In this document: positions 42,693 to 47,201 of the stretch, one piece after another
How the letters are laid out: every line of letters begins with the position of its first letter
How positions within the stretch are numbered: the stretch's first letter is position 1
Assembly (NCBI GenBank): GCA_014874475.1
Contig: JADBJJ010000022.1
Span: forward strand, 44,573-108,572
Direction: 5' to 3'
Length of the DNA stretch: 64,000 bases
Source: Chloroflexota bacterium
GTDB taxonomy: Bacteria; Chloroflexota; Anaerolineae; B4-G1; DUEL01
Program-made: the position numbers and the translations under genes
The notes under the pieces: generated by a model
What the model was told of the DNA's origin: nothing
The model's input: the letters and a program-made list of their open reading frames with translations, nothing else
The model's database searches: none

Positions 42693-45600
42693 ATGTCCGC
42701 TGATGCCCCTGGCTCCATCTCCGTCGGTGGCGACGTAGGGAAGTCGGTTCTGGTGACCGGCTCGCAGAACATCATCCTCCAGGCCGAACAGGTGCTGTTC
42801 CAGGCTGCCCAGGCTGCGCGGCAGGAAGGCTTGGACCCCGCCCACGCGCTGCGCATCCTGGCTATTCTGGCTGCGCCGGTCTACGACCCCCGCCGGCCGG
42901 AGTACCTTCCCCCACCCCTGGATTTGAAGCAGGAATGGCACGAACTGTCCCAGGCGGTTCGGGAGAGCCGTGCTCCCATTCTCTTGGTGCGCGTCGTTCC
43001 GCCCACGCTGGACTTTCTGCGCCGCGCCCTCTCGCCGCGGGCCGAGGCCCAGGCCTTCTTTCCCCACATTCTCCACTTCAGCGGTCACGCCTGGTCGGGC
43101 GGGCTCCTGCTGGAGGACGAGTTGAACCGGGTCCATCCGGCCACCACGGATGAGGTTCTGGATGCGCTGAAGGGCCTGCCCCGCCCGCTGGACCTGGTGG
43201 TCCTCAACGGCTGCGAGAGCGCTGCCGGTGCGCGCTCTGTGGCCCAGGCGCTGGTGGAGAGGGGCCTGGCGCGTGCGGCGGTCGGGCACACCCAGTCCGT
43301 CTACGACCCCGAGGCGGTGCGCTTTGCCGCCCGCCTGTATGCCGAACTGAGCGACGGTTTTCCGCTGAAGGAGGCGGTGGAGCGGGCGCAGCGGGCGGTG
43401 ACTACGCACGAAGTGCTCCTGCTGGGCGATGAGGGCCTGCGTTTTGAGGGCTTCACTGGTGGAGGGCCCTGGATAGACGACCGTCGCCCGCCGGGCAATC
43501 TTCCCGCCCGTCCGGGTTTCTTCTTTGGCCGGGGGTCTCGACTGGTGGAAATCGCCAAGGCGCTGGCCCATCCGCCCCGGGTTGTGGTCTTCTCCGGCCC
43601 GGCGGCCATCGGCAAGACCTCCCTGGCGCTGGAGGCGGCTCACCGCAACGGTTGGCGTTTCAGCGGCGGCGTCGCCTTCGCCGAAGGGCCGCGCCCGGAG
43701 GAGGGCCGTCCCGGCACTGCGGACGACCTCTTCAACCGGCTGGCCGAGGCGCTGGGCATCCGCCCGGAGGTGGGAAGGGTTGCCGAGGCCCTGCGGCTCT
43801 ACACCGACCGGCGGCCCACCCTCCTGGTGCTGGATAGCCTGGAGGGGCTGCCGCAGTTGGAACTGGATCGGTTGCGGAGGTTTCTATCTCATCTGGGCGG
43901 GGAGAGTGCGGCCCTTGTCCTGGCCCGGTCGCCTCTGGGGCTGCTGGAGGCTCTCCCCTCTGCCTGTTTCCTTCCCCTTCACGAAGGCATCGGGAGCGAG
44001 GCGGCGGTCCGCTATGCGCTCCGGCTGGCCGAGGAGCGCGGGATTCCCCTGGGGCCGACCAAGGCCGAGGAGATGGTCCGCGCCGTGGACGGCCATCCCC
44101 GGCTGGTGGAACTTCTGGTGGCCCAGGCCAGGCAGCGGGACTTGGCCGTGCTGCTACGGGAGGTGCGGGAGCGGCGCGGCGATTTCCGGAGGCAGTTGGA
44201 ACTGGTCTACGACTGGAGCGTCGGGCTGCTGGAGGAGAGGGGGCAACTGGGGGCCTGGCAGGCGCTGGACCTCTTTCCTGCCGGGCGGGCGCCGGAGGGC
44301 CTGCTGCGTGCTGCGGCAGGCGAAGAGGGGGTGGAGGCCCTGCGCGAGGCGGCTCTGGCCGACTTTGACCCGGCGCGGCAATTCTGGCGCTGGCACGCCA
44401 CGGTGGGGGAGTATGCTCGGATTCACTGGCCGCTGGATGAGGGGGAGCGCTGCGCCCGCCTGGCTGCGCTCCTGCCGGTGTGGACGGAATGGCTGGCGGG
44501 CCTGCCGCCGGAAACGCCGGAGAGGGTTTTCCGCATAGAGGCCCAGGAGGCCAACCTGGGCCTGCTTCTTGAGCAGGCGGCACACCTGCCGGGAGAAGCG
44601 CTTCGAGCCTGGCTGAGGGGGCTGCAGCGGGTCCTGCCTGAGCCCGACCGCACCCTGTCCCTGCGGGCTTTTGAGGAGCGGCTGTACCGAGTTTGGGCGG
44701 AGGGGGCGAGGGAGCAGGAGGAGCGCGCGCAGGTGCTGGGGATGCTGGGCTATGCCCTGGCTGCGCTGGGCCGGCGGGAGGAGGCGCTGGCGGCGGCGCA
44801 GGAGGCGGCCGACCTCTACCGGGAACTGGCCCAGGCCCGCCCCGAGGCCTTTCTTCCCGACCTGGCGATGAGCCTCAACAACCTGGGAGCGATGCTTTCC
44901 GACCTGGGCCGGCGGGAGGAGGCACTAACGGCCACTGAAGAAGCGGTGAAGATTCGTCGCCAACTGGCCCAGGCCCACCCCGAGGCCTTCCTCCCCGACC
45001 TGGCCGGGAGCCTCAACAACCTGGGCAAGATGCTTTCCGAATTGGGCCGGCGGGAGGAGGCACTAACGGCCACCGAAGAGGCGGTGGGGATATACCGCCC
45101 ACTGGCCCAGGTCCACCCCGAGGCCTTTCTTCCCGACCTGGCGATGAGCCTCAACAACCTGGGCATCTGGCTTTCCGCCCTGGGCCGGCGGGAGGAGGCG
45201 CTGACGGCTACTGAAGAGGCGGTGAAGATTCGTCGCCAACTGGCCCAGGCCCACCCTGAGGCCTTCCTCCCCGACCTGGCCAGGAGCCTCAACAACCTGG
45301 GCAACATACTTTCCGCCCTGGGCCGGCGGGAGGAGGCGCTGAAGGCTGCGGAAGAGGCGGTGGGGATATACCGCCCACTGGCCCAGGACAACCCCCAGGC
45401 CTTTCTCCCCGACCTGGCGATGAGCCTCCACAACCTGGGCAACCGGCTTTCCGCCCTGGGCCGGCGGGAGGAGGCACTAACGGCCACCGAAGAGGCGGTG
45501 GGCATCTACCGCCCACTGGCCCAGGTCTATCCCGAGGCCTTTCTCCCCGACCTGGCGATGAGCCTCCACAACCTGGGGGCGATGCTTTACGCCCTGGGCC

Positions 45601-47201: not shown

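Follow-up and report, generated by a model that had tools for sequence, protein, structure and literature searches.

In the Bell/NLR amyloid signalosome, a small helical protein bears a motif at its C-terminus and is paired with an NLR that carries the motif at its N-terminus, and the BASS motifs form fibrils and prions (10.1101/2020.01.06.895854). Prokaryotic amyloid signalling has so far been described as a two-gene relay, in which a motif-bearing receptor templates an effector that is encoded next to it and bears the same motif. The published scheme divides NLRs into those with the motif and those with an integrated effector, and the N-termini of the latter serve as the non-amyloid negative class (PMC12261475). 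Separate effectors in which a CHAT domain carries a C-terminal BASS have also been reported (10.1101/2020.01.06.895854; PMC7889193). Here we describe, from computational analysis, a gene in a stretch of 64,000 nucleotides (the window) from a Chloroflexota bacterium (contig JADBJJ010000022.1, positions 44,573 to 108,572). The gene encodes a CHAT-STAND-TPR protein of 1502 aa, in which a short tail of the candidate amyloid-signalling type precedes a complete caspase-like protease. CHAT-STAND-TPR all-in-one proteins, BASS/EAD adaptors and Bell executioners were all previously known. In the running text of the literature covered, a motif ahead of an integrated effector in a receptor with no linked partner was not found described.

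Other described systems share parts of this protein. The Bab/Agp system of E. coli is an anti-phage abortive-infection system that acts via a shared amyloid motif, BASS11, for which an association with CHAT, TIR, NACHT and NB-ARC is stated as well (Ibarlosa et al. 2024, 10.1101/2024.11.07.622273). It is similar to the present case in that the sensor has an N-terminal motif and TPRs and the small helical executioner has a C-terminal motif. Unlike the CHAT receptor, Agp has neither a STAND NTPase nor a protease, and the Bab and Agp genes are adjacent. The effector-associated domain (EAD) EAD10 is reportedly from the work of Kaur et al. in 2020. As a small terminal adaptor with several copies per genome, located on effectors and STAND receptors and with a predicted homotypic contact, EAD10 (PF19954) resembles the tail, and it is found at the N-terminus of TPR-GreA/B-C-PIN proteins, the architecture of Agp (Kaur et al. 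2021, PMC8195603). By analogy, the tail motif family has two literatures, BASS and EAD, and an experimentally supported mode of action. The fold of the protease domain is shared with SAVED-CHAT of type III CRISPR (8tl0) and with Csx29 of Craspase, which are activated by assembly, 8tl0 as a filament. Unlike the CHAT receptor, 8tl0 is activated by a cyclic-nucleotide sensor and Csx29 by Cas7-11, rather than by a STAND NTPase, and neither has an amyloid-type tail. In the fungal NWD2/HET-S system, an N-terminal NLR motif of ~21 residues templates the beta-solenoid of the effector, and the repeats of the NLR are highly similar with hypervariable positions, as in the present protein. In contrast, NWD2 lacks an integrated effector and has its partner gene next to it, and its motif belongs to an unrelated family. 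The all-in-one CHAT-STAND-TPR proteins, such as the copy on contig C26 of the same genome, have the same order of CHAT, P-loop STAND NTPase and TPR; they differ in that they begin at CHAT and have no N-terminal motif.

The present locus agrees with the Bell/NLR signalosomes (10.1101/2020.01.06.895854) in that a motif of 20-25 residues rich in G, N, V, I and S starts a STAND-TPR receptor, in that the host lineages are filamentous, and in that the same motif family also ends a small helical Bell-like protein of the same genome. It differs in that a complete CHAT protease (residues 50-238) is located between the motif and Walker A (residue 302). It also differs in that no effector gene adjoins the CHAT receptor or lies within 5 kb, the candidate being on another contig, and in that the CHAT motif is a diverged subtype that has not co-evolved with the local Bell motif. 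The parts of the protein, in window coordinates, are as follows.

42693..47201, + strand: coding sequence of the 1502-aa CHAT-STAND-TPR protein (enclosing open reading frame 42672..47201; Pfam)
42711..42776, + strand: BASS6-like/EAD10-related amyloid-signalling-type motif GSISVGGDVGKSVLVTGSQNII, residues 7-28 (profile comparisons; predicted to be unstructured in the monomer)
42840..43406, + strand: CHAT caspase-like protease, residues 50-238, catalytic His 128/132 and Cys174 (Pfam, invariant columns and fold match)
43521..44765, + strand: STAND-type NTPase (NOD) module with a helical arm, Walker A at residues 302-309 and Walker B at 377-382
44766..46835, + strand: TPR array of 14 near-identical 46-aa units and 1 degenerate unit (Pfam and repeat analysis)
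46836..47198, + strand: C-terminal TPR-like cap outside the repeats, matched by TPR_4 and TPR_16 around residues 1402-1460

The anatomy of the protein is established. The first-pass annotation, made from the sequence letters, had described an intact His/Cys dyad, a P-loop NTPase and a long TPR sensor, and all of these parts are present. The Pfam CHAT family (PF12770) matches residues 50-238 at 51.6 bits against a cut-off of 24. The sequences HFSGH (residues 128-132) and LNGC (residues 171-174) contain the dyad, and H128, H132 and C174 do not vary among the 30 family members aligned. In the AlphaFold2 (AF2) model of residues 1-310, the mean predicted local distance difference test (pLDDT) value is 74, and the CHAT core is confident. 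According to Foldseek, the best match of the CHAT model in the PDB is SAVED-CHAT 8tl0 (E 3e-12, 26% identity), and further fold matches are metacaspases, separase, MALT1 and Csx29 (Csx29 at ~5e-4).

The NTPase contains Walker A GPAAIGKT at residue 302 and Walker B LLVLDS at residue 377, and G302, G307 and K308 are invariant in the 30 sequences. The Pfam matches over residues 277-401 are both sub-threshold, nSTAND6 at 18.5 bits (cut-off 27.7) and AAA_16 at 18.3 bits (cut-off 32.6). In precomputed annotations, CHAT-STAND-TPR homologues are assigned AAA_16 (PF13191), AAA_22 (PF13401), nSTAND1 (PF20703) or NACHT (PF05729). The order of CHAT, NTPase and TPR fits a STAND/NLR-like architecture.

The repeat array gives 311 bits with TPR_10 over 14 stretches, and TPR_12 is also found in it. 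At the DNA level, a 138-nt unit is repeated 14.2 times at positions 44766-46727 with 81% match. The differences between the units cluster at unit positions 16, 20, 24, 25, 35, 38, 42 and 43, and the homologues range from 827 to 1502 aa in length. The spread of lengths suggests expansion and contraction of the TPR repeats, and the array, as judged from its repeats, shows the pattern of expandable, hypervariable repeat sensors. On the CHAT protein, PADLOC found its generic TPR model only, and NCBIfam gave sub-threshold TPR matches only.

The motif at residues 7-28 contains five G, four S, four V and three I, one each of D, K, L, T, Q and N, and no P. The composition agrees with that of BASS motifs, which are rich in G, N, Q, V and I and poor in K, P and L. 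The length of the motif and its location also agree with the NLR side of BASS (~20-25 aa at the very start of a P-loop STAND-TPR protein). In the AF2 model, residues 1-29 have pLDDT values of 30-41 and no secondary structure; a helix of the CHAT module runs from residue 25 (25-44), and the confidence rises to 80 from residue 31. According to the model, the tail is a free extension outside the protease fold. We also considered the tail as an integral strand of the CHAT fold, and this was rejected because AF2 leaves residues 1-29 unmodelled.

The short N-terminal segment had been described in the first-pass annotation as amyloid-like and beta-arch-like, with reference to the RHIM/BASS-like motifs of some other STAND/NLR proteins. 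A motif that resembles the BASS6-like/EAD10 type is located ahead of the protease, and it is not of the RHIM or BASS3 kind. The tetrad [IV]Q[IV]G of RHIM, BASS3 and PP is absent from the CHAT tail, which reads ISVG, and the first 50 residues of the CHAT protein have zero Pfam family matches at E<=10. The tetrad was counted manually in 5 of 42 homologues, and the remaining pattern of the G-x-N-x-Q-x-N-x-F type is found in none of them. In Pfam searches with termini of 50-60 aa, the tails of the Bell-like protein and its NLR described below gave sub-cut-off matches to the YadA-head repeat, with E of 0.0035 and 0.038.

The relationship of the tail to the motif family was assessed by profile comparisons. 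A Bell-side profile was built from the C-terminal 30 columns of 119 relatives of P0002, the Bell-like protein of this genome, with the genome's own protein left out. It was run on the 60-residue N- and C-termini of all six-frame open reading frames (ORFs) of at least 100 aa, that is, 18,672 termini. The best termini were the Bell at 49.6 bits, the NLR on contig C32 at 29.2 bits and the CHAT tail at 19.3 bits (rank 3), followed by termini at 14.3 bits (a wrong-frame ORF) and 9.1 bits. The two next-best matches, on contigs C2 and C19, were read and rejected as wrong-frame noise. With the same profile, N-termini of orthologues in other genomes were matched at E of 5.7e-6 to 8.8e-3, and 24 of 45 family N-termini reached at least 10 bits, 6 of them at least 20, with a maximum of 28.8. 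A CHAT-tail profile was also built from 33 homologues, with the window's own protein left out. The alignment of this profile to the Bell-C profile using hhalign gave a probability of 94.6 and P of 7.1e-8, with 22 columns in register. When the column order was shuffled, 0 of 300 shuffles reached the hhalign score of 27.0 (mean 7.9, standard deviation 1.95, maximum 15.2), and thus composition alone does not explain the match. According to these comparisons, the CHAT tail probably belongs to the Bell/NLR amyloid-signalling motif family.

In the clustered database, P0002 has 246 relatives at E<=1e-3; 119 of these were fetched, and 1422 cluster representatives were found in a larger library. Nearly all of the listed relatives end with ...ASGDRSVAIGGxVSGSxI[IV]TGDxNxV. 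The supplement of PMC8086366 (Dyrka et al. 2021) holds the BASS training sequences, including cluster C09, in which the same motif is seen by eye; the listed members agree with the Bell consensus over almost the full length. According to the cluster order and sizes compared with Table 1 of PMC8086366, C09 is probably BASS6, and this ordering is supported because cluster C03 is visibly the RHIM-like BASS3. The exact BASS number of the tail motif is uncertain. The covered part of the supplement of PMC8086366 contained no strings typical of the P0002 family, and none typical of the CHAT tail. EAD10 matches an extension after the motif in longer relatives of P0002, whereas in STAND proteins of another genome (G045) its match, at 37.2 bits, spans the motif region. 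As judged from these matches, the tail motif family overlaps Pfam EAD10; the CHAT tail lacks the part of the EAD10 profile that precedes the motif. Among the relatives P0056, P0071, P0141, P0070, P0095 and P0118, some have a second, EAD10-matching segment after the motif and others have a C-terminal KTSC fusion.

The first-pass annotation had proposed to look in the genome for a second protein that ends in this motif, and such a protein is present with a cognate NLR. A strict regular expression derived from the tail matched 3 sites when the 3.0 Mb genome was translated in six frames, each of them at a terminus of a STAND/Bell-like gene, and the motif is thus more than a chance pattern. The sites are the CHAT tail, the N-terminus of P0003 and the extreme C-terminus of P0002. 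The related proteins of this genome are as follows.

Contig C32 43471-43884 (locus L005 5472-5885), - strand: P0002, Bell-like protein of 137 aa, motif at the C-terminus
Contig C32 40844-43453 (locus L005 2845-5454), - strand: P0003, nSTAND5-TPR receptor of 869 aa, motif at the N-terminus
Contig C26 ~71836-74091 (locus L006), + strand: second CHAT-STAND-TPR protein, reaching the contig end

P0003 starts 17 nt downstream of the stop codon of P0002, and it matches nSTAND_NTPase5 at 87.6 bits and TPR_14 over 10 stretches. Its TPR/HAT-like repeats are also near-identical copies. In the AF2 model of P0002, the helices lie within residues 3-108, the first helix is hydrophobic, and the tail 109-137, which carries the motif, is coil. 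P0002 thus has the features of a Bell protein: its helical bundle of ~100 aa starts with a hydrophobic helix, the motif lies at its C-terminus, and it adjoins an NLR with the same motif, which shares 15 of 22 motif residues. The pair is established in the genome of the CHAT receptor, and by its sequence features P0002-P0003 is a canonical Bell/NLR amyloid-signalosome gene pair. Fold homology of P0002 to known structures was not found by Foldseek against the PDB (best E 0.42). The VIA wide search with P0002 reached Z 5.2 at best and only Z 3.7 for the ZAR1 coiled-coil domain, and the PDB profile search gave WD40 and ankyrin repeat artefacts only. Pfam has no model for Bell. PADLOC gave nothing for P0002, and for P0003 it gave matches to unrelated defence models only, the best being PrimPol at E 1e-12. 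The complex of CHAT residues 1-45 and Bell residues 100-137 was also predicted, and no answer was obtained (score 0.02, mark 0.32).

In the mechanism that we propose, the hypervariable TPR array would bind a ligand, and the STAND NTPase would then oligomerise. The effector would be the built-in CHAT caspase-like protease. The 22-residue tail, predicted to be disordered in the resting monomer, would meet the other tails through oligomerisation of the receptor, and the assembled tails would stack into a cross-beta (beta-solenoid-like) seed. The primary role of the seed would be homotypic and in cis: it would lock the CHAT domains into a cluster or filament, and the proteases would be activated by proximity. 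Death-fold/RHIM filaments for caspases and the filament assembly of SAVED-CHAT are analogous to such a role. As a possible secondary role, the seed may cross-template the C-terminal motif of the C32 Bell-like protein, which would give the CHAT receptor a membrane-attacking executioner shared with the nSTAND5-TPR receptor. We infer ligand sensing, oligomerisation, amyloid formation, protease activation and cross-seeding, and we give about an even chance to the whole reading, in which the TPRs sense, STAND oligomerises and a cross-beta stack of tails clusters active CHAT, with possible cross-seeding of Bell.

The cis role is favoured because the CHAT-type tail signature is conserved irrespective of the local Bell variant, because no dedicated partner was detected in the genome or within 10 kb of 33 orthologues, and because the nearest solved CHAT protease (8tl0) is filament-activated. 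The signature SVLVTGSQNVIIQA is kept across genomes, and the conservation of the motif in most orthologues is established. A search with the CHAT-tail profile found no partner with this signature elsewhere in the genome.

The tail may instead be a purely heterotypic adaptor, and the CHAT-NLR would be one node in a genome-wide motif network. The tail would signal in trans to the C32 Bell only, or the protease would be a client recruited to the seeds of another receptor, e.g. the nSTAND5-TPR receptor; the activation of CHAT would be independent of self-stacking of the tail. The presence of the motif family on 3 proteins of the source genome is in favour of such a network, and the 'EAD principle' described in the literature operates in this way, as do the BASS pairs and triplets (PMC8195603, PMC12261475). 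The layout also recurs in the genome with the closest orthologue (G041, 78% identity), which has a Bell+NLR pair and a CHAT receptor elsewhere; the CHAT tail of that genome is identical to its own Bell tail at 11 of 22 positions (manual count). Further support comes from G045 (L111-L116), which has 1 Bell homologue, a trypsin-like protein that bears the motif close to the C-terminus, a CHAT orthologue, and at least 4 STAND proteins (NB-ARC, nSTAND5-like and AAA_16/NACHT-like) with the motif ahead of the NTPase. In genomes such as G045, the motif is, as read from the proteins, a shared code across many proteins, and the trypsin-like protein, alongside the CHAT orthologue, is a precedent for a motif-linked protease and counts for the mechanism proposed above. 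A second Bell-like match of G045 is located inside an 890-aa frame (L110).

The heterotypic adaptor is, however, at variance with the absence of adjacent Bell genes. No Bell-like gene was found within 10 kb of the 33 orthologue loci, so that the adjacency is 0/33, and none is present in the window. The CHAT tail has not co-evolved with the local Bell, as it is identical to the P0002 motif at 7 of 22 positions, against 15 of 22 in the cognate pair. Bell is also not enriched in the genomes that hold an orthologue. The Bell-like helical domain was found in 2/5 and 15/27 of the other genomes with a CHAT orthologue, which gives 18/33 with the source genome, and the background is 22/41 relatives, with 11/13 in the genus. 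These genomes are metagenome-assembled genomes (MAGs) of unknown completeness, and the matches of the helical domain were counted manually from tables. We regard a purely heterotypic adaptor as unlikely, though as the main competitor of the proposed mechanism.

Beyond both, the tail may be related by descent and no longer amyloid, as a leftover of domain shuffling or with a non-amyloid role. It may be an autoinhibitory strand, a pro-peptide removed by the protease, or a stability signal. The conservation of the motif bears on this. A search with residues 1-290 gave 46 relatives at E<=1e-5, 44 of them at least 50% identical. The motif columns are occupied in 33 of 42 aligned homologues, and the second half, SVLVTGS[QH]NV[IV]IQA, is best conserved. 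In favour of a non-amyloid tail, strong conservation is found only in this second half, which runs into the CHAT helix 25-44. Some homologues have a GG-rich first half, many orthologues an acidic or degraded one, and the other 9 of the 42 homologues start later and have no motif (<18 residues across the motif columns). A remnant gene in a relative of the source genome (G025) keeps the motif despite loss of the catalytic Cys, which means that retention is no proof of function. On the opposite side, the independent Bell-side profile gave at least 10 bits for 24 of the 45 N-termini, as described above, the tail is modelled in no domain, and the conserved positions form Gly/Asn arcs (GG, TG and N), as expected of a beta-arch. 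A tail that is no longer amyloid is rather improbable in our estimation.

Several of the results weigh against the proposed amyloid reading itself. EAD10 (PF19954, cut-off 24.1 bits) is unmatched by the CHAT, C32 NLR and Bell tails at E<=10. In whole-ORF mode, the Bell-side profile gave 13.1 bits for the CHAT tail, with a domain E of 0.1 among 41,476 ORFs, and the reciprocal search of the genome with the CHAT-N profile found the Bell at 6.9 bits and rank 10. The low identity of the CHAT tail to the P0002 motif (7/22, with 12/22 similar) and the lack of Bell enrichment (18/33 vs 22/41) count here also. Among the 45 family N-termini, 21 are below 10 bits with the Bell-side profile or unscored. 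Since the Gly-rich half is missing or degraded in about a quarter of the family, and many orthologues have acidic residues in the first half, the tail is dispensable in some lineages. The CHAT-STAND-TPR protein on C26 has no N-terminal motif, and thus oligomerisation of STAND alone can serve a CHAT effector.

The conserved occurrence, in Chloroflexota and Methanothrix, of receptors that combine a motif with a built-in protease and have no linked partner suggests that cross-beta stacking in cis can activate a caspase-like protease, and/or that unlinked receptors converge on one executioner via a shared motif code. Either outcome bears on the evolutionary link between caspase activation platforms and amyloid signalling. 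A wider reading, which we put forward tentatively and at clearly less than an even chance, is that the protein is an amyloid-nucleated caspase platform, in which a prion-like cross-beta seed takes the place of a death-fold filament to polymerise and fire the receptor's own protease, and that unlinked sensors (the CHAT-NLR and the nSTAND5-TPR receptor) share one Bell-like membrane executioner via the motif code. If it is true, the platform and network would be a bacterial/archaeal counterpart of the RHIM-dependent coupling of caspase and necroptosis, and they would break the either/or rule for NLRs, under which an amyloid motif and an integrated effector exclude each other.

The distribution of the gene was surveyed with one genome per species. 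Orthologues with 47-78% identity over residues ~1-310 were found in Chloroflexota MAGs of Anaerolineae, Thermoflexales, Ardenticatenales and Chloroflexia, and also in archaeal Methanothrix/Methanotrichaceae MAGs. The distribution suggests, on sequence grounds, transfer between domains of life among filamentous organisms. The archaeal orthologues are 57-65% identical (loci L029, L030, L031, L036, L041, L053 and L060). Close copies are present in 2 of 40 relatives of the source genome (G022 and G025), and both are degraded. The G022 copy is a truncated form of 398 aa with a different Gly/Asn-rich start. The G025 remnant has LNGR instead of LNGC, with Arg for the catalytic Cys. This remnant (L009, G025:C148, frame from ~1473) has 281 aa, retains the tail motif GSVQIGGDVAGSLLVTGSQNVII and goes out of frame after LNGR. 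In the same genus, no orthologue was found in 13 of 13 genomes, the best matches being 29-37% identical in the CHAT core only. The CHAT-core matches of 32-37% in 9 of these genomes are closer to the C26 protein than to the window gene.

CHAT proteins include developmental regulators, and Chloroflexota and Methanothrix, the hosts of the family, are typically filamentous. Both points would suit a protein that is no immune or cell-death sensor but a regulator of development or housekeeping in a filamentous organism, in which CHAT would act in a HetF-like manner and the tail would be a generic oligomerisation tag. We consider this explanation very improbable, as the gene is located in a 4.7 kb insertion that the closest relative lacks and is found in 0 of 13 same-genus genomes, and the distribution is patchy across domains of life. 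The near-identical hypervariable repeats, the variable repeat number (homologues of 827-1502 aa) and the tie of the motif family to Bell/NLR pairs also argue against it. Because of the insertion, the patchy distribution and the absence from same-genus genomes, the CHAT-STAND-TPR gene is accessory and mobile, and it is fast-evolving, as expected of a conflict system. The best explanation of the gene is a recently acquired accessory single-gene sensor of the NLR type, belonging to the conflict/cell-death class.

The insertion was established by comparison with a genome of the same genus (G011). The features around it, in window coordinates, are as follows.

42552..47222, + strand: insertion of ~4.7 kb relative to G011, containing only the CHAT-STAND-TPR gene and its own promoter
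42622..42649, + strand: sigma-70-like promoter TTGGCA-16-TATAAT (11/12 matches, 44 nt before the start codon)
42680..42686, + strand: Shine-Dalgarno sequence AAGGAGG (sequence read)
42477..42551, + strand: displaced promoter-like site TTGCTA-17-TAAAAT, Shine-Dalgarno sequence and ATG (42537) of the DUF523/DUF1722 gene, on the upstream side of the insertion
47198..48181, + strand: 2-thiouracil desulfurase/DUF1722 gene, the ATG of which overlaps the CHAT stop codon (ATGA)

According to the genome alignment, the counterparts of window positions 41002-42289, 42499-42551 and 47223-47457 are contiguous in G011. The order in G011 is a radical-SAM gene, a 53-nt stretch with promoter, Shine-Dalgarno sequence and ATG, and the body of the DUF523/DUF1722 gene, and the window splits these at 42552-47222. 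Window positions 42499-42551 align at 79.6% with the stretch directly preceding the DUF523 gene in G011. Because the flanking segments are contiguous in G011 and separated by 42552-47222 in the window, the CHAT gene is an insertion of ~4.7 kb in the 5' end of the DUF523/DUF1722 gene. The coding sequence of the CHAT protein starts at the in-frame ATG at 42693, 7 nt past AAGGAGG, and the promoter scan gave 2 sites in the region against a shuffle mean of 0.2. Since the ATG of the DUF523/DUF1722 gene and the CHAT stop codon overlap, the DUF523/DUF1722 gene is now probably co-transcribed with the inserted CHAT gene.

The genes flanking the CHAT gene are housekeeping genes, two radical SAM genes upstream and the 2-thiouracil desulfurase/DUF1722 gene followed by a photolyase downstream. 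No gasdermin or Bell gene adjoins the CHAT gene according to inspection of the window genes, in agreement with the first-pass annotation, which had noted no adjacent gasdermin.

An ORF of 41 codons from the ATG at 42537 is a remnant of the cut-off original start of the DUF523/DUF1722 gene. On either side of the insertion (42477-42551 and 47198-47260), a coding stretch with a similar '...FP' is kept, which may be a short duplication. Elsewhere in the window, the 2 kb bin at 8001-10000 has an AT skew of +0.20, far from that of most of the window.

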